Translations under genes and position numbers: made by a program
DNA from: a virus
DNA length: 43,713 nt
Reading direction: 5' to 3' (one strand)
Virus record (IMG/VR): IMGVR_UViG_3300029882_000049
Shown here: positions 128 to 39,266 of the stretch, piece by piece
Layout of the letters: each line of letters starts with the position of its first letter
Numbering within the stretch: the first letter of the stretch is position 1
The notes under the pieces: generated by a model
What the model was told of the DNA's origin: nothing
What the model saw: only the letters and a program-made list of their open reading frames with translations
Databases searched by the model: none

Positions 128-1026
128 GTTCTAATGTGGTTTTGCAGGGTTCGGCGTCATGCACGAATCAGGCCGACGCACAGGGAAATGCAGGAGCATG
201 GTTTCTGCCGGGGCAATATGCCTACACACTGCGAACACAGAGCGGTGCAACCTATGGGCCGTTCAATTTCTCAGTTGGTGGGGGCGGTAGTGGCAGTTCT
301 GGCGTTTCATCGCTCAACACGCTCACTGGTGCGTTGTCGATTCTCTGCGGTACTGGCTTGACATGCACGACTGCCGGAAGTTCTATCACCATCAGCACGA
401 CCGCCGCGTTTGCCATCAACTCGTTTACGGGTTGCAATGGTTCACTGGAGTTGGGCGCTTCGGTTACGAATCCAACGTGCTCGGCGCTCTATACCGCAAC
501 CCCGGCGAGCGCCACAATCACCAACACAGACAACGTAGATTCTCCGTTGGCACTGACAACGCCCTTCACTTCGGGAACGATTGTTGGGACTTTCACGCAT
601 TCCGCGATTCACACCACGACAGTTACATTGACGGCGGTCGGTTCCAGCACTCAGACGGCAAATCAAACATACACATGGAACCCTCGCATCTTCGGCGGCG
701 TAGGCGCGGCGGGTGCTACTTCGACCGTGACCGCTACGGGAACATCCGCGCTGCTCAGTACCAGCAATGTCATTGCAAGCGCAGGGCTTGGCGTGGAGCA
801 GGTTGGGCAGATTATCGGCTCATACACTACATCGTCTCAGGTGATTTATCTACTACTAACTGGCAGCACGCACACGATGGTTGATAACAATACTGGCTTC
901 CCGATGGCCTTCAACGCGCCGACGACTGTGACCTTCGTCAATGTAAACGGTGTGACTGTCACGATGTACCTGTACCAGACCACTAACTTATTGTTTGGGA
1001 TGTATTCCCCAAGGATTGCGAGCTAA
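1..1026 (+). CDS. Tail-fibre-like protein, 3' part. The gene starts at 43485 and wraps the circular junction; total 375 aa.
   Basis: Frame is continuous with 43485..43586. The protein is T/S/G/A-rich with a GGGGSGSSG linker. It sits directly upstream of the tailspike gene and downstream of the internal virion genes. Stop TAA at 1024-1026. Confidence 0.6.
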   Translation, partial: GQQLPVYALPYAGVSFFSCTAGNCSTPANTYNSVSSTSPCPTGSNVVLQGSASCTNQADAQGNAGAWFLPGQYAYTLRTQSGATYGPFNFSVGGGGSGSSGVSSLNTLTGALSILCGTGLTCTTAGSSITISTTAAFAINSFTGCNGSLELGASVTNPTCSALYTATPASATITNTDNVDSPLALTTPFTSGTIVGTFTHSAIHTTTVTLTAVGSSTQTANQTYTWNPRIFGGVGAAGATSTVTATGTSALLSTSNVIASAGLGVEQVGQIIGSYTTSSQVIYLLLTGSTHTMVDNNTGFPMAFNAPTTVTFVNVNGVTVTMYLYQTTNLLFGMYSPRIAS

Positions 1027-1027
1027 T

Positions 1028-4000
1028 ATGCGAATTATTAAGTTGCTCATCGCGCTATGCCTCTGCTCTTGCGCTTATGCACAGTCAGTTCCGTACCCTC
1101 AGATTCCGCTCACCGGAACCATTGGCTCAGGCGGAATTTTCCCGTTGCTCAATAGCGGCAATCTCGTGTTTTCTTCGGACGCCAATCACACGATGGTCTA
1201 TCCCGAAACTACAGCGCAGGGCTTTCTCAAGGTGACGAGCAGTGTTTCCCTGACAGCCACGCGGAATCTCATCGCGCCTCTAAATCTTGGTTTTAGCTTT
1301 GTGGTGGAAAATGCCACAACGGGCGGTCAAGCGATTCAGGTCATAGGCCCGTCTGGTACAGGCATAACCATCCCAAACGGGGCGCTTGTGCAGGTTTACA
1401 GCGATGGAACGAATTACCTGCAATCGGCCTTCAACCTGCAAGCGGCGCTGGCAGCAAGCCCGTACAACATTAGCCACACTACAGAACCGAATGCCATTTG
1501 TACGGCGAGCCCTACCACTGACGGTGTTTTTGGATGCAACAATCCTTCTCTTACCCCTTCAACCATCTGCGCATGGAACAACGGCATCTGCCAGAGTGTT
1601 TCGGCTCTCTCTTTCGGGGCGGTGGGCGACTGGAACGGAACCACCGGCACGGATAATACAGCGGCCATCAACGCTGCTCTTGCTTACGAAATAGCTCACC
1701 CGGGGACATGTGTTTACTTCCCGAGCGGTGGCTATGCTCATCTCTCCCAAATCACATGGAATAGCACCTCGCCGGTTTATTTATGTTTGCGCGGGGAGGA
1801 TGCTAGAGCAACCTACCTCATCTACACAGGGTCGGGCACCGTCACTGCCGGATTTTATGCAGGCATACCAACGGGCACCGTTTTTATAAGGATGGACGTT
1901 AGAGACATCGCCTTCTCGTCAAACGCAAATGCTGGCTATGCCTTTTACACTATTCGAGTAGGCACGTCCTCCATCATGGACAACGTGTATTTTAGTGGGG
2001 GCAGTATCTCCGCTTTTGAAGCGGATTTTTGGAACGGCCAGAGTGACTTGAGGGATCTCTTGGCTGGCCCTTATGGGGTTCCGGGGTCTAGCACCTGCGT
2101 AAATGGATTGACATTCAGCAATGGATTGGATGGCGGCTCCACTTTCCCTTCCAGCCAGTTCACGCTGACGATGCCTGTGGTGAAAGGATGCTCTGGCATC
2201 GGTTTGAATATGCCTCAGGCCGCAGCCATTACAGTGAATGGCGGTCAGTTTTCCAACAACTATCAAAATATGGTGGTGGGCTGCAACACAAACGGTTGCA
2301 ACGGCGTAGGAAACGTGTTCAACAATGTATTGGATGAAGCTCCTACCGTAACAAGCACTGTGGCAGGCGCTCGCAACCACTTCGAGGGACTCAACGGCAA
2401 CCTGAATATCTCTGGGATAAGCAATGAAATCACTTTGAGCGAAGGGCTTTTTGCGATTCAAGCGGGAGCCGTTGGCACCATTATGACCAACGACGAAATC
2501 TCCGATGGATCGACAGACGCCGGGACGGGGACAATTGGGTGGAACAATGTCGATGTAGCCCAAACCCCTTGGACGACGACATTCAACGCCCAGCCCCCCA
2601 CAAACATACAGACGCTAGTCAACTCTCACTCAGGAGCGTCTGCCACACTCACGATACCTTCTGGTCAGGCGGATGCAACGTATATCACATGGCCCGATGC
2701 TTCAGGCACGCCCTGCTTGCTTACAACTTGCGTTGCCCTGAATCCTACGGGAAGTCAAACCATCACTAACCCAACCGGCGATGCGCTGAATATCGTGACT
2801 TCCGGGAGCGCCTCCAGCGCTTTGAATGTAACTAATAACTTTGCAGAGACGGGCAACATAGGCGTGACTATGGCGCAATTCCTTGCGCCGAACATTGCTG
2901 CTGGGCAATCCACCGGGACCGGCATTGTTGTCGGTACAGCGCCGACCGCCCTCAACTACACTTACATCGCCTTTCAATATGCCGGTACGGGTAGCACATC
3001 GAACGCCGCCTACTTTGGAGTTGGCGCTCCAGCTTCCCCCGGCGACCCACTGGGTATTTGTACGACTGGCGGTGGAATTATCGGGCTGGGGTACAGTTTC
3101 TCGAACACAGTTATTCCGCCAGCGTGCCCGACCACCGGCGCAACCGTGCAGTTTGGCGGAAATGCAACTTCGGCCTACGATATTCAGGCAGCGACGATGC
3201 ACTCGGGAGGAAGCGGAAGCACGAACCTGGTTTGCACACCGGGCAATGGGTTGTGTCCGACCGGAATCACCAACCCCATGACGACGCTGGGTGACACTAT
3301 CTACGGAGGTGCATCTGGAGCCGCGACGCGCTTGGCGGGGCCGACGACTACGGCGCACGTCTTCGCCTATTCCGATACTCCTGTTGGTTCTGCCTCTGTC
3401 GCGCCTGCGTGGTATGACCTTACCCTCAATGTTCCTACCTTTGTTGGGAACAACGCCTATACCGGAACCAGCACGTACATCGGCGCAGCAGCCACCACTC
3501 CTGTGCTGGTGGAAAACGTGACCGCAGCGACGAGTGGGGCTAATCGGAACAGCCCGTGCTTTGGGCTATCCGGCCAGTATTGGACTGGGTCGGCTACAGC
3601 AGGAGACACCTTCACTCAGTGCGTCCAGTATGGCACTGGAGCGAACCCCACTAAGATATTAGTCTTCTCCGACGCAACTGGTTCTAGCGGAGCCGCAGCA
3701 GTACAGTTTCCGCAGGTGCAATCCAACGGCTTCGTAGGGGAGACAGCGCAGAGCACCGGCAACATTACATTCGGCGCTGGTGCGGGGGGTACGCCGACCG
3801 GAGTAACCATAGTTGGCACGGACGTGAATTTTCAGATTAGCTTCACCACTACGGGCGTACCGACCCCTGGTGCTCTCGTTTTCACCGTCGCTTACACCCA
3901 AAATAGAGGCCACGTTCCTTATTGCACCTATGCCGCAGCCAGCATTCCCGCTACTGGGGTGTTGGTCGATGTCGATGCCGGAAGCGCACTGGCTACAAGC

Positions 4001-4072
4001 ACGAGCGTTTTTGCTTCAGCGGCGGGGTTGGCGACCAGCTCCGCATACACTTTCAATATGTTTTGCCCTTAA
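1028..4072 (+). CDS. Tailspike / depolymerase-like protein with a right-handed beta-helix (pectate-lyase-like) domain, 1014 aa.
   Basis: ATG at 1028 lies 1 nt after the upstream stop. The motif LSFGAVGDWNGTTGTDNTAAINAALAY..CVYFPSGGY is typical of the N-terminus of pectate-lyase-3/tailspike beta-helix domains. The N-terminus MRIIKLLIALCLCSCAYAQ is signal-peptide-like. Confidence 0.7.
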   Translation: MRIIKLLIALCLCSCAYAQSVPYPQIPLTGTIGSGGIFPLLNSGNLVFSSDANHTMVYPETTAQGFLKVTSSVSLTATRNLIAPLNLGFSFVVENATTGGQAIQVIGPSGTGITIPNGALVQVYSDGTNYLQSAFNLQAALAASPYNISHTTEPNAICTASPTTDGVFGCNNPSLTPSTICAWNNGICQSVSALSFGAVGDWNGTTGTDNTAAINAALAYEIAHPGTCVYFPSGGYAHLSQITWNSTSPVYLCLRGEDARATYLIYTGSGTVTAGFYAGIPTGTVFIRMDVRDIAFSSNANAGYAFYTIRVGTSSIMDNVYFSGGSISAFEADFWNGQSDLRDLLAGPYGVPGSSTCVNGLTFSNGLDGGSTFPSSQFTLTMPVVKGCSGIGLNMPQAAAITVNGGQFSNNYQNMVVGCNTNGCNGVGNVFNNVLDEAPTVTSTVAGARNHFEGLNGNLNISGISNEITLSEGLFAIQAGAVGTIMTNDEISDGSTDAGTGTIGWNNVDVAQTPWTTTFNAQPPTNIQTLVNSHSGASATLTIPSGQADATYITWPDASGTPCLLTTCVALNPTGSQTITNPTGDALNIVTSGSASSALNVTNNFAETGNIGVTMAQFLAPNIAAGQSTGTGIVVGTAPTALNYTYIAFQYAGTGSTSNAAYFGVGAPASPGDPLGICTTGGGIIGLGYSFSNTVIPPACPTTGATVQFGGNATSAYDIQAATMHSGGSGSTNLVCTPGNGLCPTGITNPMTTLGDTIYGGASGAATRLAGPTTTAHVFAYSDTPVGSASVAPAWYDLTLNVPTFVGNNAYTGTSTYIGAAATTPVLVENVTAATSGANRNSPCFGLSGQYWTGSATAGDTFTQCVQYGTGANPTKILVFSDATGSSGAAAVQFPQVQSNGFVGETAQSTGNITFGAGAGGTPTGVTIVGTDVNFQISFTTTGVPTPGALVFTVAYTQNRGHVPYCTYAAASIPATGVLVDVDAGSALATSTSVFASAAGLATSSAYTFNMFCP

Positions 4073-14117: not shown

Positions 14118-14917
14118 TTGGATTTCCTCAATTCCTTCAGGCGTTCGTCTCGCGCTTCGGTGTAGATAGTCATAGCCCGGTAATCTGGCGGGGTGAACTT
14201 CTTGGCCGATTCGATGGCCTTAGTCCATGCCGCCATCACCTTCACAGCGTCTTCCTCTGCTCGGATAGCCGCAATGTGGATATCAGCCTCACCCTGAGTC
14301 ATTCCCGGCAAGTTGCCGTCATTGTCCGTGTTGGAAGCGACGATGCCGCAGGTAGCCAAGAACGTGTAGCGCTCAAGGTAGGACGTAGAGGAACCAACGC
14401 CCTGAATGGGGTTCTTGCCGCCGCTCTGGTCAGCAGGGCCAGCCAGTGAAGCGCCCTCCTCCTCATAGCCCAGCCTGTGCCGCAGGAAGCAGGTAACGCG
14501 GGTCATGCCACCGGGAAGGTCTGTGCATTTCCAGCGGTGCGTTATGCCGACCTTGAGAAGCGCGGGAATCAGCAGCTCGCAAGCCTTGTCCAGTTCGACG
14601 TGGTAGTAGCTCGTCGCCGGGGAATCAGCCTTCTTGCTCTCGAAGTAGACGTGCTTGGTCTTGAGAATCCGGGGAGCATCGTCCTTGAACTTCTTGAACG
14701 CCTCCGCAAACTCAACCTTCGCCTGGCGCTCCAACTTCTCCCAATCGAATCTGTCCCGGCTCTGGCGCATCTCTTCCCACTTGGTTTCAAGGTCAACAAT
14801 CTGCTTGGCAATCTCAATTGCAGCCTGCGGGTCTGTCACCTTGCGGGATAGCTCCGCGAGAAGCTGCATCCCTGACGGCGTGGTTGCTACGCGCTCAATT
14901 TGCGTGTTTTCTGGCAC
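14114..14917 (-). CDS. erf: ERF-family single-strand annealing protein (267 aa).
   Basis: LIPALLKVGITHRW...LRHRLGYEE...NPIQGVGSSTSYLERYTFLATCGIVASNTDNDGN matches ERF hallmarks (P.L.k.Gi, H.sG, Q..GS..tY.rRY.l...Gi..D.D). GTG start with AAGGAG upstream. Confidence 0.7.
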   Translation of the reverse strand: MPENTQIERVATTPSGMQLLAELSRKVTDPQAAIEIAKQIVDLETKWEEMRQSRDRFDWEKLERQAKVEFAEAFKKFKDDAPRILKTKHVYFESKKADSPATSYYHVELDKACELLIPALLKVGITHRWKCTDLPGGMTRVTCFLRHRLGYEEEGASLAGPADQSGGKNPIQGVGSSTSYLERYTFLATCGIVASNTDNDGNLPGMTQGEADIHIAAIRAEEDAVKVMAAWTKAIESAKKFTPPDYRAMTIYTEARDERLKELRKSK

Positions 14918-14945
14918 TGTATTGCTCCTTAGAGTTCTGATTCGG

Positions 14946-15506
14946 TTACTTGGCTTTCGGGTGGATGCAGCTTGAATCGTTCTGCTGGTTTATTTTCTGG
15001 TCTTCCAAGCTGCGAACGCGAAAAACGTCTGACAGCATACAGTTGACGGTTTCGTGTAGCTTGGCGCGCAACCCATCTTTCAGGGAAGCCGCTACATTGA
15101 CCATGTGCTGTTTCATTTCTCCGTGGAAGTCGGAAGCGACCATGTTGAGCATCACCCATTCGGCGCGGGTGGTTTTGTTGTAGCTATTATCGGCGGGATT
15201 TCCCTGCTTATCCACCATCTGATTCCAGTAACCAGCAACCTGCTTCTCAAGCTCCGCAGCGATTGTTGTCGGATCGCCTGTAGGTTGACCGAAAGAATTG
15301 GCCTTGCGGTAGGGCCGCTCGAATCCTGCCTTGATAGCGCCCATCACGGCATCGCTAATCTGCTTGTCGGCAGTCTCTTTGAAGATGTTGTCAATGCGGC
15401 GCTCAACGGTTTTAGCTACGAGGTCACGCAAACCATCAGCTTCGATAAGCTCGCCCGCAACTTGCTCAACAATCGCTAACTCGACTTTATTCTGGTCAAT
15501 CTGCAT
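14946..15506 (-). CDS. Hypothetical protein (186 aa).
   Basis: AAGGAG lies upstream of the internal ATG at 15506. The longer ORF would overlap the upstream gene. Confidence 0.6.
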   Translation of the reverse strand: MQIDQNKVELAIVEQVAGELIEADGLRDLVAKTVERRIDNIFKETADKQISDAVMGAIKAGFERPYRKANSFGQPTGDPTTIAAELEKQVAGYWNQMVDKQGNPADNSYNKTTRAEWVMLNMVASDFHGEMKQHMVNVAASLKDGLRAKLHETVNCMLSDVFRVRSLEDQKINQQNDSSCIHPKAK

Positions 15507-15531
15507 TTTCTTGCTCCTTGGTAGAGGGTTA

Positions 15532-15762
15532 CTAAAACTTGATGTCTTGGTTGTCTGGTTCAGGTGGGGCTTGAATCTGCAACCAGACGTTAGCGAAGTT
15601 TTCAGGCAAACCCCTATTGCCGCCTGCCGTCCCGTTGTAGAGATATCTGCGCTCCCACATCGTTCCGTCCTCGCATACAACTGCGAAGATGCCTTCCTGA
15701 TGCTCGGTATCGCTCACCACAACCAACTGGCGAACCTTGCGGCCTTCAATTGCTTCGCTCAT
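15532..15762 (-). CDS. Hypothetical protein (76 aa).
   Basis: ATGA-coupled to the upstream micro-ORF. Protein-like composition. Confidence 0.6.
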   Translation of the reverse strand: MSEAIEGRKVRQLVVVSDTEHQEGIFAVVCEDGTMWERRYLYNGTAGGNRGLPENFANVWLQIQAPPEPDNQDIKF

Positions 15763-15893
15763 CGTGTCCTCCAGAGGTGTGCTGCAAACATTACAAACTC
15801 AACCAGCCACTGCGTAATACCTATTGCAGCAAGGAACGCAGGTATGGCGAGAAAAACGTAGATAGCGAGGAGCGCGGTTGCGTCGTAGGTCAT
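15759..15893 (-). CDS. Hydrophobic micro-protein (44 aa) coupled to the pentapeptide-repeat gene.
   Basis: Hand translation: MTYDATALLAIYVFLAIPAFLAAIGITQWLVEFVMFAAHLWRTR. ATGA overlaps at both ends (15890-15893 and 15759-15762). Confidence 0.5.
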   Translation of the reverse strand: MTYDATALLAIYVFLAIPAFLAAIGITQWLVEFVMFAAHLWRTR

Positions 15894-16672
15894 TTGGTTG
15901 CCTTCGCTTTCGGTGGCAGATTCATGCGCGTAACCGCAGCCTTAGCCAGATTGAACAGACCGACGCGATCTTCACATTTTTCGGATTTGTCGTCAGGAAA
16001 CTCGGACAAGTTGCTCTTACGGATACCTACTTTCTTCCACTGGGCCAGTGTCTTCTCTAGGCACCCCATCTTGACCATGCGCTCCCCATCTTCAAACAGC
16101 ACAGCAAGCACTACGAAGGGATACAGGGAAGATGAAAAGATACGGATAGAGTGGGCCTTCTTTTTCTCTCCGTCGGCACCGCGCAGGTAGGCACCGCGCA
16201 GGTCGGCACTGCGCAGGTCGGCACCGTACAGGTCGGCACTGCGCAGGTTGGCACCGCGCAGGTCGGCACCGTACAGGTTGGCACCGCGCAGGTCGGCACC
16301 GCGCAGGTTGGCACCGTACAGGTTGGCACCGCGCAGGTAGGCACCGCGCAGGTCGGCACCGCGCAGGTAGGCACCGCGCAGGTCGGCACCGTACAGGTTG
16401 GCACCGCGCAGGTCGGCACCGCGCAGGTCGGCACCGTACAGGTTGGCACCGCGCAGGTAGGCACCGTACAGGTTGGCACCGTACAGGTAGGCACCGCGCA
16501 GGTCGGCACCGTACAGGTTGGCACCGCGCAGGTAGGCACCGTACAGGTTGGCACCGTACAGGTCGGCACTGCGCAGGTCGGCCTTCTTCTCTACCGCTTC
16601 AACCAACGCGTCTTTCAGTACGGTCGCCGCTGCGCTAAAAATCACTCCACCGACCATATTTACAATGTCCAT
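15890..16672 (-). CDS. Pentapeptide-repeat protein (260 aa): 30-aa N-terminus, 27 consecutive A(D/N/Y)L(R/Y)(G/S) units, and a C-terminal domain of about 90 aa.
   Basis: AAGGAG lies 7 nt upstream of ATG at 16672. The repeat matches the A(D/N)LXX pentapeptide-repeat consensus (Qnr/MfpA-type right-handed quadrilateral beta-helix). Confidence 0.85.
   Translation of the reverse strand: MDIVNMVGGVIFSAAATVLKDALVEAVEKKADLRSADLYGANLYGAYLRGANLYGADLRGAYLYGANLYGAYLRGANLYGADLRGADLRGANLYGADLRGAYLRGADLRGAYLRGANLYGANLRGADLRGANLYGADLRGANLRSADLYGADLRSADLRGAYLRGADGEKKKAHSIRIFSSSLYPFVVLAVLFEDGERMVKMGCLEKTLAQWKKVGIRKSNLSEFPDDKSEKCEDRVGLFNLAKAAVTRMNLPPKAKATK
16178..16582. repeat. Tandem array of 27 x 15 bp, forming the coding core of the pentapeptide-repeat gene.
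   Basis: Plus-strand unit is AC[C/T]G[CG/TA]CAGGT[A/C/T]GGC. Only 4 of 15 positions vary. Eight unit types were counted by hand. Confidence 0.95.
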
Positions 16673-16695
16673 ATATTTCTCCTTGAGTGGTGGGG

Positions 16696-17187
16696 CTAGA
16701 GTACGGTTACGGGGCCGACTTCACGCCCGATCTTCGAGCATAGGTTGGTTAGAACCTCGTTGGCGCAAGTGGTGGGATTCATCATCACAGCGTCACACTT
16801 GTACTTTCCCGCGCTCATTTGAGTTTTCAAGCCCATAAAGTTAGCGACGGTGAAGGTGACATCCTCTGTGCCAGCGAACAGGCGGTAGTACCGCTTCTCC
16901 GCAACTACGGTGAACGGGTGGGAGCCAATCAGTTCAGCCATGCGCTCCGTGGGGCTTTTGTAGGGCGGCGGCGGGGGTACCAAGTCCGCTTTCCAGCAGC
17001 ACTCATCGTCTAATTCGACATCGCCCGAGCCTTCGTAGTACCAGCTAAGGTCAGACGCCGCATTGCGGCTGTTCTCGATGGCGTAATCTCTTGCCTTCTC
17101 CAGAGCGTCTTGCTCATCCTGCGCCTCAACTTCGAGGGTCGTGTTGATAGTGCTTGTTGCGGACATCCAGACTTTGTAGGTGTTCAT
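16696..17187 (-). CDS. Hypothetical protein (163 aa).
   Basis: Second gene of the leftward operon. Protein-like composition with a PPPPPY linker. Confidence 0.65.
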   Translation of the reverse strand: MNTYKVWMSATSTINTTLEVEAQDEQDALEKARDYAIENSRNAASDLSWYYEGSGDVELDDECCWKADLVPPPPPYKSPTERMAELIGSHPFTVVAEKRYYRLFAGTEDVTFTVANFMGLKTQMSAGKYKCDAVMMNPTTCANEVLTNLCSKIGREVGPVTVL

Positions 17188-17259
17188 GGTTATTACCCTT
17201 GCTTTCTAGCAACTCCGCTAGACGGTTGAGTGGTGGGGGTGAATCAGCTTAGGCCGAAA

Positions 17260-18063
17260 CTACTTAGCGCCCTTCATTGCTTCGCGTACATCGCGGACGA
17301 GATCGGAATGAATCTCAAACACGACAGGCTTGCCTTGTTGGGCGGCATCCGCCAGAAGTACACGCACAGCCTTTACGAGAGCTTTCACGTCAAACTCCTG
17401 CTTCCGCTCGCGTACTACTTTGCCCTTGGCGTTTTTCGGAGCCGCCGCAATGTGCTCTGCGGCCTTCGAACCAAACTTCTTGACGGCTGATACAGCCTTG
17501 CCCTCAGAAACCTCACCCATTACCAACATATGCTTTACAGTGTCGTCGGCATCGTTGAGAGCGAGACAGGAAGCGATGTACTGCGGAGTCTTGCCGAACG
17601 CCGTGGCGATATCTTCCTCTGTCTGTCCGAGGTTGATGAGACGAGCGTAGTTCTTACCAATCTCCCACTTCTCAAGCGGAGCGCCGCCGTTAGCTGTCAT
17701 CGCATACTTGATGCGCGTGACTTCATCCGCGGAACCTTCCATACACAGAACAGGAACACCAAAGGGCTTGTCGTCCTTCCCCTCTGTTGCCGGCAGAAGT
17801 CCTTCCTTGATGAGTTCCTTGACGGCAGTCAGGCGGGATTCACCATCAATCAGGATGCAATCCTCACCATCGCGGCGCACCCAGAGAGGCTGAAGTACGC
17901 CACCAGCCGAAGCAATCATGGGCTTCAAGCGGTCGATATTGGCGCGTAGAGTTTCCTTCACGCGGGGGTTGAAGTTTTTCTCGACCTTGATTTTGAATGG
18001 GTCGAACCGCACCATGTCTCGAACGCCTACGCGCCCCTCAAGTTCCTTTACGCCGCTTGCCAT
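17260..18063 (-). CDS. ParB N-terminal-domain (ParB/Srx-like) protein with an HTH (267 aa).
   Basis: LQPLWVRRDGEDCILIDGESRLTAVKEL resembles the ParB box (..v...dg.y.lidGerRl.A). HTH-like QTEEDIATAFGKTPQYIASCL. First gene downstream of the leftward promoter, with an AGGAG RBS. Confidence 0.65.
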   Translation of the reverse strand: MASGVKELEGRVGVRDMVRFDPFKIKVEKNFNPRVKETLRANIDRLKPMIASAGGVLQPLWVRRDGEDCILIDGESRLTAVKELIKEGLLPATEGKDDKPFGVPVLCMEGSADEVTRIKYAMTANGGAPLEKWEIGKNYARLINLGQTEEDIATAFGKTPQYIASCLALNDADDTVKHMLVMGEVSEGKAVSAVKKFGSKAAEHIAAAPKNAKGKVVRERKQEFDVKALVKAVRVLLADAAQQGKPVVFEIHSDLVRDVREAMKGAK

Positions 18064-18103
18064 GTGTCATCTCCTGTGCTCTTTCGTTCTTGAGCGTGTA
18101 TCC

Positions 18104-18132
18104 AATTTAGCCGATGCGTAGAAACGTGTCAA
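18104..18132 (-). promoter_or_regulatory. Leftward sigma70-type promoter: TTGACA-N17-TAAATT.
   Basis: Read on the minus strand, -35 is at 18132..18127, the spacer is 17 nt and -10 is at 18109..18104. A leader of about 34 nt carrying AGGAG precedes ATG 18063. Confidence 0.6.
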
Positions 18133-18161
18133 GCGGAATTGGCTAACATTGCTAAAATAAG

Positions 18162-18190
18162 TTGACACCCACCCTGAGAGGGTATAAATT
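18162..18190 (+). promoter_or_regulatory. Rightward sigma70-type promoter: TTGACA-N17-TAAATT.
   Basis: -35 at 18162-18167, 17-nt spacer, -10 at 18185-18190. The hexamers are identical to those of the leftward promoter. Confidence 0.6.
18171..18183. promoter_or_regulatory. Palindrome ACCCT-GAG-AGGGT in the spacer of the rightward promoter; candidate operator.
   Basis: Perfect 5-bp inverted repeat around a 3-nt centre, located between the -35 and -10 elements. Confidence 0.4.
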
Positions 18191-18197
18191 CGGTTTC

Positions 18198-18413
18198 ATG
18201 GAAGTGACAAAAGATCATATTCTGCGCCTGATAAAAGAGCGTCAAAAGTCGCAATCACTGCGCCAGTTCGCTATATCGCTGGGCGTTTCTGCGGCATATC
18301 TATCAGATGTTTACCTTGGCAAGCGCGACATCGGCCCGAAGATTCTAAATCGGTTTGGGTTCCGCAAACAAAAGACTTCGGTCATCACCTACTACAAGAT
18401 TGGAGCGAAATAA
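18198..18413 (+). CDS. XRE-family HTH transcriptional regulator (Cro/CI-like), 71 aa.
   Basis: QSLRQFAISLGVSAAYLSDVYLGKR is a classic XRE HTH. The ATG lies 8 nt after the -10 element with no SD sequence, suggesting a leaderless mRNA. Confidence 0.7.
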   Translation: MEVTKDHILRLIKERQKSQSLRQFAISLGVSAAYLSDVYLGKRDIGPKILNRFGFRKQKTSVITYYKIGAK

Positions 18414-19013
18414 ATGGCGAAGATTGACATTATCGAAGAGACAAAGTTGAAGTGGCCGGATGGTTTAGAGCGCACCCGCATCAAGGAGCGTGTGGGTCAA
18501 GGCCGATGGAAGGAGGGCTGGGCTGTCACGCGCCAAAAACTAACGCAAGAGTTGGAGCGTTTGGGTGCGACCTCTGTGCTTGTATCCCGCAGCGACAATG
18601 AACATCTTGACCCCGGCGTGGCTGTCTGGTTCTCACGCAAGAAGGAAGATTTTTCGTGGCAGCAGGGTTTGGGTTTTGACAATCCCGCGCCTACTGTTGC
18701 CGAGATTGACGCTGCCTTCCGTGCGAAGGCCATGAAATACCATCCCGACAATCCGCAGACTGGCGACCCAGCACTATTCATGCAATTCAGCCATTGGCGT
18801 AAGGCGGCGGTCGCGTGGGTGACAGGCACACACTCTCACGCCCACGAATACGTCATGGCGATTGACCAATACGACGAAGCGCGGCTGAACCTCAAGGCGT
18901 TGCAGATGTCGTTCTTTTACATCCGTCGCCTCGAAGACGTAGGCGCTCCAGCAATTCTCACGCAGACGCTCGGAGCGTTCCGGGCAAAGCTGATGCAAGG
19001 AAGCGGTGAGTGA
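18414..19013 (+). CDS. J-domain (DnaJ-like) protein (199 aa).
   Basis: AEIDAAFRAKAMKYHPDNPQTGDPALFMQF contains the HPD tripeptide in a J-domain helix II/III context. Confidence 0.65.
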   Translation: MAKIDIIEETKLKWPDGLERTRIKERVGQGRWKEGWAVTRQKLTQELERLGATSVLVSRSDNEHLDPGVAVWFSRKKEDFSWQQGLGFDNPAPTVAEIDAAFRAKAMKYHPDNPQTGDPALFMQFSHWRKAAVAWVTGTHSHAHEYVMAIDQYDEARLNLKALQMSFFYIRRLEDVGAPAILTQTLGAFRAKLMQGSGE

Positions 19014-27489: not shown

Positions 27490-29874
27490 ATGGAGGAGCA
27501 GCTTGCCGACGAAGCCGCTCCTGTTTCCGTGCCGCAAAGCGATGACCCGCCGACTTACGGCGTAAACAACCGCGACCTCCCCGACATCCTGAAAGATGCT
27601 TTTGACCGCCTCGTAAAAAAGTATCAGGCGCGGGATGTGTACGACCGCCGCATCGAAGCGCTGATGGATAGAATCTTGCGCTTCTACGACGATGGGGTGC
27701 AGCACGTCTATCCCAACTGGGGAACGGGTGTATATCAGGTTGGAACGGCGGGTGGTTACGTCAACATAGGCAACGGGCAGTCTATTGAATGCCCTGAGTT
27801 TATGGGTGCGTACAACATCTTCCGCATCCGGCGCAGGTCGCTTGACGCGGTGCTTACACAGAATGAGCCGGCAGTAGACTTCACCCCCGACCGTCCTGGA
27901 CAGAGTGAGGATATTGAAGCGGCTGAGACGGCTGAGGGTTTTCGGCATCTATTTGACCAGAACAACGACATCAAGAAAATTCAGCAAGATATTGCTCGGA
28001 TGTTCGAGCTTTCGGGCCGGTGTGTGGCTTGGACATCAACGCTCAAGTCGCGCGCTAAGTTTGGCAGTAACGCCGATGGTACGCCGCGCTCAATGGAGAC
28101 CACGCGCATCTACGGAACACTGGAGTCAAAGGTTCCGATTGTCTGCGATGAGTTTTGCGATGCGCTGTACTGCTTTCTGTATGACGACCTTGATGCTCTG
28201 ACCGCGAAGGCACAGAACGATTGGATTGAAGACAAGATCGCGCCCGGAGAGGCTGGCTTAGGCGAGTCTGATTGGGAACGATATGCGCGTATTGGTGCGC
28301 GGCAAGCGAAGAAATCGTACTACCTGACAGGCGTGGCTCTGTCGTACCTCACGACGGAGATGAACTGCTTTCTCCGCCCTGATGGGTTTACCGACAAGTC
28401 GATGGATGAGCCGTACACCGGAGAACTTCCGAATGGCGAGATGTCGGACGGCACGAAAACCATTCAGGAAATGATGGAGATGTTGTTCCCTGATGGGGCG
28501 CATGTCAAGTACATCGGCAAGACGTACTCAGAGGCTTGGAATGAGTGCCCTGACGATGCTCTTGACGTAGGTTTTCCGGTAGAGCGCGATGGGATGAGCG
28601 GCGGCGCTCTTATGGAGCCGGACAAGGTCGTGCAGGATGCGTTCAACGACTACATGAACGCCAAGCGCGAGAACTACGAGAAGGGCTGGAGTTTCACTTA
28701 CTTCCGTGGCGATGCGGAAGACTATGACGCGATTGTTGACCAGCGAAGTAAACCGGGTAACTGCGTTCTACTCAAGTCGGCAGACCCGGGCCACCCGATT
28801 GAGGAAAGTTTCTACCGCGAACCGCAGACAGAATCCCCAGCAGGGTTTGATGAGGCCATCACTGAACTTCGGATGTTATCGCAGGAGCTTGTAGGCGCTC
28901 TCCCTGCGCTCGAAGGACAATCCAAGCCCGACCAGACGGCCAGTGGTCAGGCGATGGATAGAAGTCAGGCGATGGGGATGCTCGGCCCGGCGTGGGCTTC
29001 TTTGCAGCGGATGTTCGGCGGCATCTACACAAAGGCCGCGCTACTTGCTTCGGAGAATCCTGACCACGGACAAGAAATTGTCGTGACATCGGGCGATGGA
29101 AAGAATGTCACGCTAAAGTTGGAGCGACTGAAAAAGGGCAAGTTCCACGCGCATATTTCCGAGTCGAGCTTCCCTGAGACGACCGCATCGAAGCGTGCCA
29201 ACCTGCAAACAATTATCGAGATGGCATCGAAGTCTCCACTTGGTCAAACACTGTTCGAGTCGCCCGATAACTGGCAGGAGTTCTTGCAGTTGAACGGCAA
29301 CCCTGATTTGGTGCTGACTCCTGCAATTGCATATAAAAAGCAGACGCGCGAGTTGGAGATTCTATTGCGTGAGCCGCCACAAGACAATCAGCCAGCGATT
29401 GATGCCTACAACCTTCAGCACGCGGCACAGGCATTGCAAGCAAGAAATGCGGGCCTGCCCGACCCTCCTTACACGCCGCCGCCCGCACAACTTCCTTCGC
29501 TCATGCCAGAAGCTGACGACTATCACCAATGGGAGTCTGCGAAGTGCCAAGAGTATCTGTCGTCTGAGGATTGCTGGATTCGCCAGAACATTGGTGAGGT
29601 TGCTGAAATTGAACAAGCCAAATTGGGCGTGCAAAATGTTAGACTCCACAAAGGCGTGCATGACCAATTCCTCGCGCAACAGGCGGCAGCAAAGGCAGCA
29701 GCGATGCAGCAGATGAAGCCGCCGAGTGAGAGCATCAATTTCAAAGATGAAGACCCAGCCGCTAGACAGCAGATGAATAAGCAAGCTGGAATTATCGAAG
29801 CCGCGCCAGAAGCGCAGCCCGGAGTAGCAAAGAACGCCGCAGCACCCGGTACGCCGGGAACAGCAACAGTTTGA
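27490..29874 (+). CDS. Putative portal protein (794 aa).
   Basis: Assigned by size and synteny: downstream of terL and immediately upstream of the scaffold-like and capsid genes. No motif could be verified by eye. Confidence 0.55.
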   Translation: MEEQLADEAAPVSVPQSDDPPTYGVNNRDLPDILKDAFDRLVKKYQARDVYDRRIEALMDRILRFYDDGVQHVYPNWGTGVYQVGTAGGYVNIGNGQSIECPEFMGAYNIFRIRRRSLDAVLTQNEPAVDFTPDRPGQSEDIEAAETAEGFRHLFDQNNDIKKIQQDIARMFELSGRCVAWTSTLKSRAKFGSNADGTPRSMETTRIYGTLESKVPIVCDEFCDALYCFLYDDLDALTAKAQNDWIEDKIAPGEAGLGESDWERYARIGARQAKKSYYLTGVALSYLTTEMNCFLRPDGFTDKSMDEPYTGELPNGEMSDGTKTIQEMMEMLFPDGAHVKYIGKTYSEAWNECPDDALDVGFPVERDGMSGGALMEPDKVVQDAFNDYMNAKRENYEKGWSFTYFRGDAEDYDAIVDQRSKPGNCVLLKSADPGHPIEESFYREPQTESPAGFDEAITELRMLSQELVGALPALEGQSKPDQTASGQAMDRSQAMGMLGPAWASLQRMFGGIYTKAALLASENPDHGQEIVVTSGDGKNVTLKLERLKKGKFHAHISESSFPETTASKRANLQTIIEMASKSPLGQTLFESPDNWQEFLQLNGNPDLVLTPAIAYKKQTRELEILLREPPQDNQPAIDAYNLQHAAQALQARNAGLPDPPYTPPPAQLPSLMPEADDYHQWESAKCQEYLSSEDCWIRQNIGEVAEIEQAKLGVQNVRLHKGVHDQFLAQQAAAKAAAMQQMKPPSESINFKDEDPAARQQMNKQAGIIEAAPEAQPGVAKNAAAPGTPGTATV

Positions 29875-29895: not shown

Positions 29896-31164
29896 ATGCC
29901 AGAAGAAGCAATCGTAGACGCCCCCATTGAAGAAGTAATCGAGCCGGTAGAAGGCGCGGAGCCTGTTGAGGGCGCTGAACCCATCGAAGGAACCGAAACT
30001 GACGGCGGCGAGGCTCTTTCCGGCGCTCCGCTTTGGAAAGCTATTCAGCAATCGTTGTCCACAACCGATAAGAAGACTGTCGCACAAGTCCGTAAGGCCA
30101 TCTACGACTCCACAGAGGTAAGCAAGCGTCATCCCGAAGGGCTAAAAGGCATAGACGCCGTTCTTGAGTCAGTAAAACGGCTGTCTGCGGACTCCGAGAC
30201 TCCCGACGCCGTGCCGATTGAGCAAGTCATTGAAGAAACAGTGCAAGAACGCACGTTCTGGCGCGAATTTGACAACGAATTTCAGCAAGGCGACCCCAAA
30301 ATTATCGGGCGCATGATTGAAGCCAATCCCGAAGCCTTCCAGCGTCTTGTACCAGAGGCCATCAACAAATTCGCAGAGTTGAACCCAGATGGTTACTCCT
30401 CGATTGTGGCAAAAGCTGTGGTCGGATACTTCCAAGACCAAGATTTGCCGCTGCAATTCAAACTACTTGACCGCATCATCCCGCAAAAGTCCGACGACCC
30501 CTCCGTACAGCAGTTGATTGAGGGATATTCGGCTATTAAGCGCGCGTTTGAAGGCATTACAACGATGGCAAATAAGCCTCTTGCTACGCCGGACGTGAAA
30601 AAGCCAGAAGCGACACAGACTCAGCAGCCGAATCAGGAAGATGCTGCAACCCGTCTCCGCGATATCGAGTGGAACGCCACCATCGCTCCAACTTCGCAGA
30701 GTTTGATGGTCACTGAGGCGCAGAAAGTTCTCGGCAACGCCAAGCTGACGGCGGATGAGATTGGAAAAGTACGCACCGCCTTCCGCGAAGAGATCAACGC
30801 ACGGGTTGCCATCAACACCCCCTACCAGAACGCGCTAAAGGCGTATCTGAAGGCCAATAACAAGGCCGCGTACATCCAGCGGGTTCAATCGGAGCACAAG
30901 AAGATCATTCAGGGCGCGGCCAAACGGATTGTGGGCGATGTTCTGGCGGCGCGGAAGGGCAAGCCAGCGCCCACTACTGTAACCAAACCCGCAGCGACCA
31001 AACTCCCCGCCGAAGAGGGCGCAGTGAAGTTTGAGCGCATCGCCGGAGCGCCACAGGCTCAGGGGTTGAAGGTTGACCTTGCGCGGACTCCACAGCACAT
31101 GTTGGTGAAGCGTCAGGCGTACATTGTGGGGCGTAAAAACCCTGTCACTTGGAGTCCAAAGTAG
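29896..31164 (+). CDS. Putative scaffolding protein (422 aa).
   Basis: Lies between portal and capsid. Acidic N-terminus with EPVEGA-type repeats. Long helical, Lys/Glu/Ala-rich sequence. Confidence 0.5.
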   Translation: MPEEAIVDAPIEEVIEPVEGAEPVEGAEPIEGTETDGGEALSGAPLWKAIQQSLSTTDKKTVAQVRKAIYDSTEVSKRHPEGLKGIDAVLESVKRLSADSETPDAVPIEQVIEETVQERTFWREFDNEFQQGDPKIIGRMIEANPEAFQRLVPEAINKFAELNPDGYSSIVAKAVVGYFQDQDLPLQFKLLDRIIPQKSDDPSVQQLIEGYSAIKRAFEGITTMANKPLATPDVKKPEATQTQQPNQEDAATRLRDIEWNATIAPTSQSLMVTEAQKVLGNAKLTADEIGKVRTAFREEINARVAINTPYQNALKAYLKANNKAAYIQRVQSEHKKIIQGAAKRIVGDVLAARKGKPAPTTVTKPAATKLPAEEGAVKFERIAGAPQAQGLKVDLARTPQHMLVKRQAYIVGRKNPVTWSPK

Positions 31165-31324: not shown

Positions 31325-32599
31325 ATGGGCATCGCTAACTCCATGCAAGCTCTCGCTTCCGAGCAAGAGTACGTCCGCCCGGAACTCGAAGACCTTTCGC
31401 TTTCCGCATCCGTCCTCCGCAAGCGCATCCAGAAGAATACGTCGGTCAAGCCCGTATCAGACCGTCCGTGCCGCATCCCGACGATGCCTTCCCGTGGCGG
31501 CAAGCCGCGTGTAGGCAACATGAACGGCGCGGACATGGGCATCGGTTCTGGCCCGACTCAGGTTCCCGGCCAACTGACCACAACCTGCTTTATTCACGCC
31601 TTCAGCTACACCCGTCAGGCTGAGTATGCAACCGATTCGGACGAGAAGGCGATTGAGAACTTTGCCACACTCACCCGCTCGATTGCGCCGAAGCTGTTTG
31701 CCGACTTCCTCGACATTACGCTTCAGGGCGACGGCTCCAACACCCTCGACACCGTTGTTTCACTCGTCGCAGAGGGCGGCAACACGGTTGGCATCGTGGT
31801 CAACAACGCCAACTTCTTCCTTGACGATCAGGACGTTGACGTTTGGACGGCGGTTGGCGGCACGTTCGTTGCCACCATCACCGTGCAGGACTCGGACATC
31901 CTCTCCAATACCATCTGGCTTGCGAACGGTGTTACTACTGGCGTCATCACTGCCGGCATGAAGCTGCTTGTATCCGGCTCATCGGGTCAGGCCAATTCCG
32001 GCATGTTCGGTCTGCGCTACTATCAGGTTGGCACGAACACAGGCAACTGGATGGGCGTACAGCGTTCCGCGTGGCCGGGCAAGTACAACACTCCTTCCGT
32101 TGCCGTAAACGGCGCTCTCACTCCGCAGATCGTTCGCGCTCTCCAGACCCAGATGGAATTCTCGAAGGGCATGGACGTGGAAGATGAAGACTTGGTGGCT
32201 CACGCTACCCCGTCTGAGCTTGCCGCATGGGAGCAGAACGCGCTTCTCGTGCAGCACATCGACATGGCAATGCTCAAGGGCGATGAATCTGTGGACATGC
32301 TGAAGCGCAAAACGCCCAGCACTATCGGCGGACGGGAATTCCTTCCCAACCCTCGTGCGCTGCCGGGTTACATTGACTTCCTCGCACTCAAGAACGCTTT
32401 CCAGATTCAGACCAAAGCCGACGATTTCTACGATGTCGCAGGTCAGACTCTGTTCGGCGTGATTGGCGCAAGCGGCGGTCAGGCATCGGCAGTCGTTTTC
32501 TACATGATAAGCGAGCTTAATCTGGGAATGGTGCAGACCCGCGAAAATGCCTTTGCAAGCGGCATTGCTATCCCGTCAGGAATTCTCGGACAGGCATAG
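31325..32599 (+). CDS. Putative major capsid protein (424 aa).
   Basis: Position after the scaffold gene, appropriate size, GAGG RBS, and a preceding 160-bp intergenic region. Confidence 0.6.
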   Translation: MGIANSMQALASEQEYVRPELEDLSLSASVLRKRIQKNTSVKPVSDRPCRIPTMPSRGGKPRVGNMNGADMGIGSGPTQVPGQLTTTCFIHAFSYTRQAEYATDSDEKAIENFATLTRSIAPKLFADFLDITLQGDGSNTLDTVVSLVAEGGNTVGIVVNNANFFLDDQDVDVWTAVGGTFVATITVQDSDILSNTIWLANGVTTGVITAGMKLLVSGSSGQANSGMFGLRYYQVGTNTGNWMGVQRSAWPGKYNTPSVAVNGALTPQIVRALQTQMEFSKGMDVEDEDLVAHATPSELAAWEQNALLVQHIDMAMLKGDESVDMLKRKTPSTIGGREFLPNPRALPGYIDFLALKNAFQIQTKADDFYDVAGQTLFGVIGASGGQASAVVFYMISELNLGMVQTRENAFASGIAIPSGILGQA

Positions 32600-38400: not shown

Positions 38401-39266
38401 GGATGGCATGGCCCACCGAAGGCGGAGCGGTTATCTTCGGCGGGGGAACTGTTGAAAAAATCAGCCAAGAGATTCAGCCAAACTGGTATGACCCTACCAA
38501 GAGCAATACGGCCATCCAAATCAACATGGACGCGGCGCTGACAGTCTGGGGTTTGAATGACCCCGTACAGCGGCTGCTGATGTTCGGCGTACCCATTGGT
38601 GCTGCTACGGCTCCGAATAAAATCTACGTGCTGAACTATCGCAACCTCAACTCAGCCTCAGCGATTGCTGGTTCGCCGCCGTTCCACCCGTCATTTGCTG
38701 GAAAGCTGATTGCGACAGACAATTCGCGCAAGTGGGCGCCGTGGAACCTTCCGATGAACGGCGCGGTGCGGATGTATCGATCGAACGGAGCGGCGCTGAC
38801 GTTGGTGATGTTGGGCGGCAATGGACAGGCTTACGGCGAATCGGCGGGGTTCGGAAATATCTACACACTGAACCCGGCACTTCTCACGGATGAGGACTTT
38901 GGACTCGTGCAACCTTACTACGTCACCTACTTTTTCCTTGATCCTGAAAAGGCGCAGGCGTTGCAACTCAAGGGGCTTCGTATTTTGCTTGCCTACCTGA
39001 GAATCTACGTGCAAGGTGTCGGCAAAGTAACGTGCAGTTACTATTCTGATTCCCTACAAAGATTGTGGAAGTTATCCACAACTCGTACTCTCACCCCGAA
39101 CTATTTCAAGGACAGAGAGTTTGGCGGCGGTCAATGCACTGGCGACAGAATCGCCATCAAGATTGCCTCGTTTCCCACTGAAGGGACGGACAACAGCTTC
39201 AAAATGACACGGCTTACAGCGTTCATTGCAGATGCAAAACTTAAAATCACCGGAGCGAACAAATAA
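35436..39266 (+). CDS. Large tail protein (1276 aa); nozzle or tail-tubular-B-like by position.
   Basis: The largest ORF, located between the head genes and the internal virion genes. It contains repeated T..pH.L..G...-I.G-type modules. Confidence 0.6.
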   Translation: MAISPTGAVPVPLSVFGGWVSEVPPESLPENVSPDCPDVAFEPGGVGSRPCTDIVLGAPFPAGGVDGFVPTVVYAKSFKTPTGTINNLYCDSNGVFYVEDLTNSPGTYTVLFTSTPGSTCKSITQFGREYIAISDGLHGSEVPLQWDGTLLRRYTCDGPGAPPTVANLALASSQMAPAPNTLTRNANLVTANTATPHNLLVGYQAQISNMPDSNSTDVNQSMNGNPGNVGGDWQYVGTQFRTHFEPVTTALGDMTVAGLGFTIPSAATILGVTISAVLISQFATTSYLSQAALWNGSGLLGTAKTPGTPFTTSYNTVTYGSAGDQWGAALTPAIVNDPTFGFSMAVVTDTSRVFIGQPFAVTVYYTLSGTGTVAFVSSIVINNETEPGLALVTTTEPHGLVPGISVSIVGVEPGVITTIAEAQWSAGKTTITTTASHNLNPGSVVQIAGVTTATGTTAFSFNGTFTVDTVPSPNQITYIQTPITAVDPDVINATGSTGNITIAWPIPDNTPTPTYFNVESAPTPTTFYVAVSYSDGRWTTGTVGFAWEGTFYVTGVISPTQFIYRQYGPNGATTAIGTVTPFGQAAPGLHLMEVLWLTDEGAIPAPSPPVTIIANGGQYLSVTNIPIGPSYVKARILAFTGAQPNVPGELPPFFYIPQTPQTEGQIIGTSTQVNDNTTTSVVLDFSDNTLYAALGISIPGNTLANQIKLDGALGFGAYESRLLTWGQRNIINNLLNMGFGGGASALAPTVPLGWTITGNGGSLVAGRFGGQAWNMNAALGTAGLSQGFYEDAYGAPIGIVDDDPTGVTYIFRCYLVVQSPGSFVATITSPVTGFQTQAIINFTKTGWYQQEFNLPTPDSIPPDTVLYYQIFSGQATLSETMLIDSETPYTDELAYGSYLNNPEGVDGVSGQFGPNNDPSKLMDIGILRDTLYLLTQAPSGRLHETTGSGVTEPSGWQVNEVSADCGILSAISLTHSQADDVTSSGGDDWMAWPTEGGAVIFGGGTVEKISQEIQPNWYDPTKSNTAIQINMDAALTVWGLNDPVQRLLMFGVPIGAATAPNKIYVLNYRNLNSASAIAGSPPFHPSFAGKLIATDNSRKWAPWNLPMNGAVRMYRSNGAALTLVMLGGNGQAYGESAGFGNIYTLNPALLTDEDFGLVQPYYVTYFFLDPEKAQALQLKGLRILLAYLRIYVQGVGKVTCSYYSDSLQRLWKLSTTRTLTPNYFKDREFGGGQCTGDRIAIKIASFPTEGTDNSFKMTRLTAFIADAKLKITGANK

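Follow-up and report, generated by a model that had tools for sequence, protein, structure and literature searches.

The virus genome IMGVR_UViG_3300029882_000049 of IMG/VR (43,713 nucleotides; the whole of this stretch is called the window) was found to contain a pentapeptide-repeat gene at 15890..16672 on the minus strand, whose central part is built from 27 near-identical units of 15 nucleotides. The product is best read as an early anti-defence protein or host-factor binder with a fast-evolving surface, and this reading as a whole was given a probability of about 0.5. The anatomy of the gene and its mode of evolution were assigned with high confidence, and the functional assignment to early counter-defence or host-factor binding is put more tentatively, at somewhat less than even odds. 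The gene, its predicted fold, the conservation of its domains, the dynamics of the array and the pattern of selection are supported by the evidence presented here.

The coding sequence of 260 amino acids was delimited by the list of open reading frames (ORFs) with their translations and by the Pfam family PF00805, and its stop codon was found at 15890-15892. The array was found at 16178..16582 on the minus strand and encodes residues 31-165, as determined with the unit table, Tandem Repeats Finder (TRF), AlphaFold2 and Foldseek. A first-pass annotation, made from the letters alone, had described exactly 27 in-frame units in this interval, and the unit table agreed with it in every copy. The coding strand of all 27 units reads GCC-[G/A/T]AC-CTG-[CG/TA]C-[G/A]GT, with four variable positions out of 15, namely 4 (G/A/T), 10 (C/T), 11 (G/A) and 13 (G/A), and with no synonymous alternative at any codon. 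The counts of the unit types were also identical to those reported earlier, namely ADLRG (8), ANLYG (7), AYLRG (5), ADLRS (2), ADLYG (2), AYLYG (1), ANLRG (1) and ANLRS (1). The exchange of Arg and Tyr was always the coupled change of CGC to TAC in the window array, as had been stated, whereas the absence of His or Cys intermediates was not general, the relatives of the array containing both Cys (TGC) and His (CAC) at this position of the unit. The statement that all frames stay open across the array was wrong: five of the six frames were open, and one plus-strand frame contained six TAG stops, one for each AYLxx unit.

TRF found a single array in the whole 43.7-kb window (16172-16582, period 15, 27.4 copies, score 556), and a two-unit probe with up to three mismatches gave 17 matches in the window, all of them within the array, compared with none in shuffled sequence. 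The G+C content of the array was about 70%. Units 3-6 were found to recur as units 8-11, and the longest exact internal repeat, which returns five units further on, measured 74 nt; the array is therefore resolvable by ordinary reads. All four combinations of D/N with R/Y were present in the units, while N-Y and D-R stayed linked (Fisher p = 0.0036); together with the recurrence of units 3-6, these combinations indicate recombinant units and segmental duplication. The like pairs found at unit offsets 3, 5 and 8 reflect segmental duplications, and a surplus of unlike residues at offset 4, which was considered as a face-specific pattern of the helix, was non-significant (p = 0.06, uncorrected for multiple tests).

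The identical 260-residue protein, with all 27 units in unchanged order, was found on 13 contigs, three of which were placed in the JGI samples 3300029951, 3300030520 and 3300030617; one of these three has the length of the window, 43,713 nt. Because the identical unit order recurs on these 13 contigs, the 27-unit array is real and reproducible rather than artefactual. In MEGAHIT k141 assemblies the same phage had 19, 14 or 8 units, or the contigs were broken inside the array. The version with 19 units (locus L090) contained window units 1-6 followed by units 15-27, and that with 14 units (L092) contained units 1-5, 11-14 and 23-27, whereas the version with 8 units (L007) contained units 1-5 followed by a unique ADLRR unit and units 26-27. 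The partial version L094 carried a deletion of five units and stopped within the array, as did L093 and L095, the latter being a JGI contig. Outside the array, L007 differed from the window by one single-nucleotide polymorphism across about 20 kb. All jumps in the shorter versions were located in or beside an ADLRG unit, and those of L090 and L092 coincided with a motif of two units, ANLYG-ADLRG, four copies of which lie in the array (units 5-6, 10-11, 13-14 and 21-22). The shorter versions could be products of a collapsed assembly graph or real variants formed by homologous deletion, and the pattern of the jumps fits both. The ADLRR unit GCCGACCTGCGCCGT (L007 10166-10180; ENA ERZ27249506 k141_1484242) was found exactly at the deletion junction and carries a C at unit position 13 that is present in no other copy, and in L094, too, one codon (GGA) is novel; the two peculiarities may stem from mis-assembly or from true recombination between units. 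Such arrays routinely collapse or break contigs in short-read assemblies, and the lengths given in databases need to be checked before they are trusted.

The disagreement of the MEGAHIT copy numbers and the many contigs that break in such arrays would fit an explanation in which the array is no feature of the protein but either an error of assembly or an element that acts as DNA, for instance as iterons or as the centromere of the ParB-like neighbour; the invariant third codon positions and the ParB-like gene near the array in both the window and L079 would fit it as well. This explanation was considered very improbable. The recurrence of one unit order on the 13 contigs and the length of the longest exact repeat argue against an artefact, and the array lies in frame between two conserved protein domains. 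The DNA of the unit differs between lineages whereas the amino-acid pattern is kept, and the ParB-like neighbour was not conserved among the 70 viral loci compared; on these two grounds an iteron or centromere serving that neighbour was rejected. A diversity-generating retroelement was also rejected, as no reverse transcriptase was found by Pfam in the eight largest ORFs and no second copy of the unit was found in the window. The variable bases of the unit include C/T and G/A changes, unlike the adenine-specific variation of the targets of such retroelements, and a dedicated mutator is not indicated for the array.

Of the distinct arrays with at least ten units in the wider family, 27 of 44 were found to contain no synonymous codon variant at all. 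Synonymous variants made up 18 of 309 codon variants (5.8%), compared with 31% expected from random single-base change, in a count which leaves out the six most diverged loci; the binomial probability of this deficit was about 4e-28, the arrays being not all independent. The non-synonymous variants, counted in all 44 arrays, were located at unit residues 2, 4 and 5 in 307 of 354 cases. The consensus codon of Ala was GCC, GCG, GCT and GCA in 31, 9, 3 and 1 arrays, respectively, followed by CTG (28), CTC (8), TTG (6) and CTT (2) for Leu and by GGT (24), GGG (9), GGC (6) and GGA (4) for Gly, whereas the mean purity of the major codon within an array was 0.97. The synonymous codons are thus uniform within arrays and different between arrays, and these results as a whole point to concerted evolution with diversifying selection on the exposed residues across the family. 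The part of the first-pass annotation that proposed concerted evolution, in which a few unit types are shuffled, thus holds for the family as a whole, whereas nothing indicates that the array expanded very recently in this phage alone, because 27 units are ordinary in a family that reaches 44 and because the array is present on 13 contigs. The quantification of homogenisation and of diversification at exposed residues across the family appears to be new and was not found in the searchable literature.

The TAL effectors contain near-identical DNA repeats in which few specificity residues vary and which change through recombination of the repeats. Both the TAL effector repeats and the targets of diversity-generating retroelements resemble the window array in having a near-identical scaffold DNA with few variable specificity residues, and the likeness is one of analogy. 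They differ from it in that no homology is present and that no code of one unit per base is implied for the window array.

The protein was predicted to contain three parts. The N-terminal cap (16583..16672 on the minus strand, residues 1-30, MDIVNMVGGVIFSAAATVLKDALVEAVEKK) was modelled by AlphaFold2 as a beta-hairpin and a helix, with strands at residues 2-5 and 10-13 followed by a helix at 19-28 and with a predicted local distance difference test score (pLDDT) of about 96, and it was found to be conserved in the orthologues P0001-P0078. The array was recognised by PF00805 in four stretches and scored 180 bits, the cut-off being 20.2 (E = 4.5e-54), and in the AlphaFold2 model of the full protein (alignment of 54 sequences, mean pLDDT 93) residues 31-165 contained a one-residue strand every five residues with a pLDDT of 90-97. 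The array is thus predicted to fold as a right-handed quadrilateral beta-helix of about 6.75 coils, followed by a linker around residues 161-170, where the pLDDT dips to 73, and by a C-terminal domain of 95 residues (15893..16177 on the minus strand, residues 166-260), which was delimited by the orthologue alignments A1 and A4 and by AlphaFold2. The full model matched Np275/276, a synthetic consensus solenoid, HetL, MfpA and QnrB1 in Foldseek (E = 1e-13 to 1e-5). The beta-helix proposed from the letters was therefore borne out by the agreement of PF00805, AlphaFold2 and Foldseek, as a predicted and not a solved structure. Unit residues 2, 4 and 5 face outward in solved pentapeptide-repeat structures, and these are the only residues that vary in the window array, in line with the earlier claim that the variation is confined to the predicted surface.

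The surface had also been described as roughly charge-neutral, which was not correct: the net charge of the array was +5, and the isoelectric point (pI) of the array and of the whole protein was 9.5. Across the family the charge per unit ranged from -0.93 to +0.33 with a median of -0.2, many arrays being mildly acidic. These values bear on the explanation of the protein as a DNA mimic like Qnr or MfpA, in which the beta-helix would imitate B-form DNA and bind gyrase or another DNA-binding host enzyme, with inhibition or protection as the result. The mildly acidic charge of many family arrays fits a DNA mimic, as does the shared fold class (Foldseek matches to MfpA, QnrB1, AlbG and EfsQnr at E = 1e-8 to 1e-5), and phage-encoded gyrase inhibitors are known (review PMC10886550). 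However, the window protein reached 56 bits with the Qnr model NF033086, whose curated cut-off is 240, at most 68 bits with the Qnr subfamilies, whose cut-offs are 425-500, and 68.7 bits with the MfpA model NF000349, whose curated cut-off is 360; the PipB models were also far below their cut-offs. Its basic character is not that of an acidic DNA-like surface, and the surface charge is not conserved across the family. The length of the arrays, from a few units to 44, is unlike the fixed length of Qnr and MfpA, and the C-terminal module is a separate alpha/beta domain instead of the dimerising helix of these proteins. Mimicry of the DNA substrate of gyrase is unlikely because the protein is basic and falls below the Qnr and MfpA thresholds, and a DNA mimic in general was given a low probability.

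The proteins Qnr, MfpA, AlbG and McbG have the right-handed quadrilateral beta-helix in common with the window protein, for which it is predicted, whereas they contain irregular diverged repeats, a fixed length, a dimerising C-terminal helix and acidic DNA-like surfaces, with loops in addition in Qnr. The closest structural matches were Np275/Np276 and the synthetic "Beta1" solenoid (PDB 2j8k, 4ycq and 5di5), which contain near-consensus A(D/N)LXX repeats and showed 41-53% identity over the aligned region, with a root-mean-square deviation of 1.0 Å over 140 columns for 5di5. They are a cyanobacterial protein of no known function and a designed protein, respectively, and they differ from the window protein in having no C-terminal domain and no phage context.

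A megablast search with the region matched 27 phage records, in the array only and with 84-91% identity, the flanks being without a match. The records were found to include P22-like phages (ST104 orf19, ST64T orf-232, L, epsilon34 and g341c), Edwardsiella phages and one Bordetella phage. Several 15-mers were common to the window array and the arrays of the cultured phages, for example GCCAACCTGTACGGT, GCCGACCTGCGCGGT and GCCGACCTGTACGGT. The relatives contained 17-26 units, most of their arrays had zero synonymous variants, and their genomes had a G+C content of 45-60%, compared with about 70% in the window array. The 15-mers GCCAACCTGTACGGT and GCCGACCTGCGCGGT were shared with the P22-like loci L001, L003, L005 and L006, which have about 46% G+C and unrelated flanks. 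Codon optimisation, transfer of the array between genes or a constraint at the DNA level are possible reasons for the presence of the same 15-mers in unrelated phages.

The homologues of the P22-like, Edwardsiella (MSW-3, PEi21 and PVN06) and Rheinheimera Barba phages share with the window the 15-mers, the type of array and the varying number of units. Phages L and ST64T share more than 99.9% sequence identity, and of the two differences between them one is the deletion of a single 15-bp unit in orf232 (PMC8022706). Barba isolates with identical sampled flanks (2.4 kb) were found to differ by four units, and another isolate contained two units more. Among 110 near-identical Barba isolates some, such as Barba22A and Barba4S (L083 and L084), were frameshifted in the array or contained an ambiguous base, which could be due to real inactivation or to an error of sequencing or assembly, and several Barba records begin or end within the array.

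In these homologues, the P22-like ones being ST64T and L orf232, ST104 orf19, epsilon34 gp42 and g341c gp37, the C-terminal domain belonged to PHROG 37032/31567 and Cys (TGC) was present at unit residue 4, which distinguishes this type from the window protein; no function has been published for it apart from that of the phage 24 homologue described below. In the P22-like phages the gene belongs to the early-left operon, where its neighbours include ral, sieB, gene 17, cIII, kil, erf and abc2. A profile search with this second type of C-terminal domain gave, among the 120 matches listed, almost only near-identical Salmonella and Cronobacter sequences. Bordetella phage vB_BaM-IFTN6 (L004 2669-3418) contained the same 15-mers followed by a third C-terminal domain of about 110 residues, for which no Pfam or PHROG match was found. 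By sequence comparison, at least three apparently unrelated terminal domains ride on this type of array.

The first-pass annotation knew of no described phage function for such a protein, and this was corrected by gene 24_60 of Vibrio phage 24, which is reported to act against the RexAB-like system Sucellos. Deletion of 24_60 greatly sensitises the phage to Sucellos, an abortive-infection system; six of six escapers on Sucellos carry Y112R plus N110N/N115D in 24_60, and polymerase chain reaction with Sanger sequencing was needed to resolve its array (bioRxiv 10.1101/2024.07.02.601686). In GenBank, 24_60 (SBVc24_0060) was found to contain a homogenised array with the plan and the C-terminal domain of the P22 type. 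The exchanges of Y with R and of N with D in the escapers are the alternations that separate the unit types of the window array, and the clustering of these three changes, of which one is silent, would suit a tract of conversion between units.

Like the window protein, 24_60 contains a short cap followed by an array of A[DN]L[RY][GD] units that keep to one set of codons, and it ends in a small alpha/beta domain whose core is V-R/K-x-G-C ... W; it lies among early and replication genes. It differs in the type of the cap, in the unit GCA AAC CTA CGC GGC and in its Vibrio host, and its C-terminal domain is only marginally similar to that of the window protein. The counter-defence function is experimentally reported for 24_60 and may be extended to the window protein by analogy. 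A rod with the shape of DNA might in principle deceive a RexA-like sensor, a point which would favour DNA mimicry; nevertheless, the protein-binding or anti-defence role that had been proposed beside it stood up as plausible and is rated above classical DNA mimicry.

The C-terminal domain of the window protein was modelled as a separate alpha/beta domain with four strands and with two helices, one short and one long, besides a long conserved loop GIRKSNLSEFPDD, and the domain modelled alone had an AlphaFold2 pLDDT of 91.9. The residues Y184, G203, C204, W212, N221, P226 and R236 were invariant in the alignments. No significant fold match was found in the PDB by Foldseek (best E = 0.18) and none by a sequence profile of the PDB; no Pfam family, no PHROG at E <= 1 and no tblastn match in 50,697 phage records were found for the domain. 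In BFVD it was found to resemble, weakly to moderately (E = 6e-4 to 0.1, TM 0.5-0.6), the ends of other phage solenoid proteins of the pentapeptide, hexapeptide and bactofilin-like kinds. The comparison by hhalign with the C-terminal domain of the P22 and phage 24 type aligned 24 columns only (probability 72%, E = 3.3e-5), with a core of strand-strand-GC-helix-W on both sides.

A search with the C-terminal domain alone gave 78 proteins (E = 1e-62 to 1e-8), all of which contained the cap, the array and the domain in this order, and 70 viral loci carrying the domain were found in a scan of IMG/VR. An exhaustive phmmer search gave 82 clusters (50% identity) in 1.84 billion representatives, and the domain was C-terminal in all of them, with the signature MGC...W...GIRKSN...EFPDDGS and behind pentapeptide or other period-5 repeats. 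The search for orthologues and the comparison of their units, which had been proposed as a check, thus revealed a family whose members vary in the number of units. The arrays of at least six units in the viral contigs contained 6 to 44 units, with about 15 contigs stopping within the array, and orthologues with 1-4 units also exist. Some arrays were identical across samples (L014 = L018, L022-L025, L035-L038 and L074 = L075), and L026 and L027 were found to contain an identical N-terminal cap with a difference of nine units. The same C-terminal domain was present after C[TS]VS[GDYC] repeats in P0079 and after GxWxx repeats in P0138. From these sequences, the domain seems to pair with solenoids generally rather than with A(D/N)LXX repeats specifically. 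The domain family appears to be new, being absent from Pfam and PHROGs and not found in the searchable literature.

The presence of the domain behind other period-5 repeats would be expected if the array were a passive spacer or a tolerated selfish repeat, with the function lying wholly in the C-terminal domain and the solenoid being a stalk with no specific ligand, variable in length and tolerant of sequence change, whose DNA would grow and shrink simply as tandem repeats do. The domain is far more conserved than the array, the length of the array varies widely down to the orthologues with 1-4 units, the surface charge is not conserved and other solenoid proteins of phages end in a weakly similar fold, all of which would suit a spacer. 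However, relaxed constraint predicts about 31% synonymous variants, whereas about 6% were observed, and the variants cluster at residues 2, 4 and 5. The very short arrays come mostly from short-read contigs and are possibly collapsed, and the escape mutations of phage 24 map to surface residues of its array. The spacer was therefore considered improbable, though less so than the DNA mimic.

Several findings weigh against the reading of the window protein as an anti-defence protein or host-factor binder with a fast-evolving surface. The evidence for anti-defence comes from one preprint, the role of the window protein and of the other carriers of its C-terminal domain is drawn by analogy, and the C-terminal domain of phage 24 and the P22-like phages differs, with homology beyond the repeats unproven. 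The presence of the same array on 13 contigs means that it was stable over the timescale sampled, and the hypervariability of the window locus rests only on MEGAHIT contigs that are possibly collapsed. The spread of the charge from -0.93 to +0.33 per unit fits an arms race and equally fits a surface that has no ligand. No PADLOC match to defence proteins was found, and no conserved partner gene was found beside the family members at the 70 loci, where the only recurring genes were Erf (7 loci) and the exonuclease (3 loci).

Repeat domains are known to act as sensors in bacterial immune proteins, and a phage-borne exclusion or defence sensor, in which the variable repeats would sense the proteins of phage competitors while the C-terminal domain acted as the effector, would fit this background. 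The position of the P22-like homologues near sieB and gene 17 is in line with a sensor, and a P4-hotspot defence system that resembles Hailong has a pentapeptide-repeat protein among its components (bioRxiv 10.64898/2026.02.27.708500). However, the gene lies in the lytic early operon, which lysogens of lambdoid phages keep repressed, the same design is present in virulent-looking phages (Rheinheimera Barba and Vibrio phage 24), the PADLOC search gave no support, and an effector of 85 residues that has no recognisable catalytic fold is not an obvious one. The sensor was held to be about as unlikely as the DNA mimic.

The window was found to be a complete, circularly permuted phage genome in which the gene order continues from the end into the start. 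The contig L098 (JGI 3300029951, Ga0311371_10000584, 89,825 nt) is a roughly two-fold concatemer of this genome, and its use for the assignment of the host, as host DNA with a prophage, was rejected for that reason. The phage was present in dozens of assemblies, and its 520-residue protein was indexed in 31 blocks of the collection. Most of the large, presumably structural ORFs (27490-29874, 29896-31164, 31325-32599, 35436-39266, 40757-43485 and 995-4072) had no PHROG or Pfam match, and the 794-residue ORF had no tblastn match in the 50,697 phage records, where the structural genes in general were almost without matches; the phage looks like a member of a poorly sampled lineage. The C-terminal domain matched only two Acidobacteria metagenome-assembled genomes (L078 and L079) among the GTDB genomes, and because these were the only matches the host is probably an acidobacterium, although the indication is weak.

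The pentapeptide gene was found to be the third gene of a leftward operon, which contains a ParB-like gene (17260-18063), a 163-residue ORF, the pentapeptide gene, a 44-residue ORF, a 76-residue ORF, phrog_14855, Erf and an exonuclease, and continues on to a helicase. A consensus scan found a promoter-like TTGACA-17-TAAATT at the head of the operon (18104..18132, minus strand; 10 of 12 positions, a match to the consensus only), followed by a divergent twin with identical hexamers at 18162->18190 on the plus strand. A small ORF to the right of this pair (18199-18413) has by eye the look of an XRE/Cro-type helix-turn-helix protein. From its sequence, the region 18104-18413 is probably a regulatory switch, in which no repressor or integrase was identified. 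Because the operon with the ParB-like gene, Erf, exonuclease and helicase starts at the divergent promoter-like region, the designation of the pentapeptide gene as an early gene is reasonable, and its position in the operon argues for early expression.

A Shine-Dalgarno-like AAGGAG was read at 16679..16684 on the minus strand, 6 nt upstream of the ATG at 16672. The largely hydrophobic 44-residue ORF (15759-15893, minus strand, MTYDATALLAIYVFLAIPAFLAAIGITQWLVEFVMFAAHLWRTR) begins at the ATGA that ends the pentapeptide gene, and this overlap suggests translational coupling of the two; no family match was found for the ORF, and it did not recur beside family members in other phages. No Rfam match to an RNA element was found in 14500-18500.

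We infer early expression, an anti-defence role and a division of labour between the domains, and the proposed mechanism may be drawn as follows. The gene would give a soluble modular early protein with a short cap, a rigid beta-helix of 27 units and a flexibly linked domain of 95 residues. The DNA of the array homogenises itself: through misaligned recombination or slippage, units undergo duplication, deletion and conversion, and this turnover erases the synonymous differences within the array. Selection fixes the inward Ala and Leu and maintains or diversifies the three outward residues. The C-terminal domain would provide a constant function, by docking on a conserved partner or by self-association, whereas the surface and the length of the solenoid would be the fast-evolving element of specificity. 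Early in infection the solenoid would bind or occlude a variable protein of the host or of a competing phage, most likely a defence component, and adaptation would proceed through changes in the order, the type and the number of the units.

Pentapeptide-repeat genes are annotated in 269 phage records with roles that are almost wholly obscure, and very many Salmonella and Cronobacter sequences, presumably prophages, also carry them. Such genes in phages and their repeat indels were already known, whereas the link to the phage 24 result appears to be new. The window gene ties one example to a pattern of the whole family, which contains homogenised arrays, variation at exposed residues only, change of the copy number and a conserved terminal domain, and it connects this pattern with the one experimental result that hints at counter-defence; the unannotated domain family is flagged for study. 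It is possible, though rather doubtful, that the family represents a built-in device of rapid evolution that is widespread in phages, in which a constant undescribed domain anchors the solenoid and the specificity lies in the order, type and number of 15-bp cassettes that are re-tuned by unequal recombination. If true, the device would be a counterpart of the diversity-generating retroelements or the TAL-effector repeats that is driven by recombination, with the window protein as a member whose anchor domain is new and whose phages probably infect Acidobacteria, and the family would provide a testable model of how phages without a dedicated mutagenic machine re-tune a binder.

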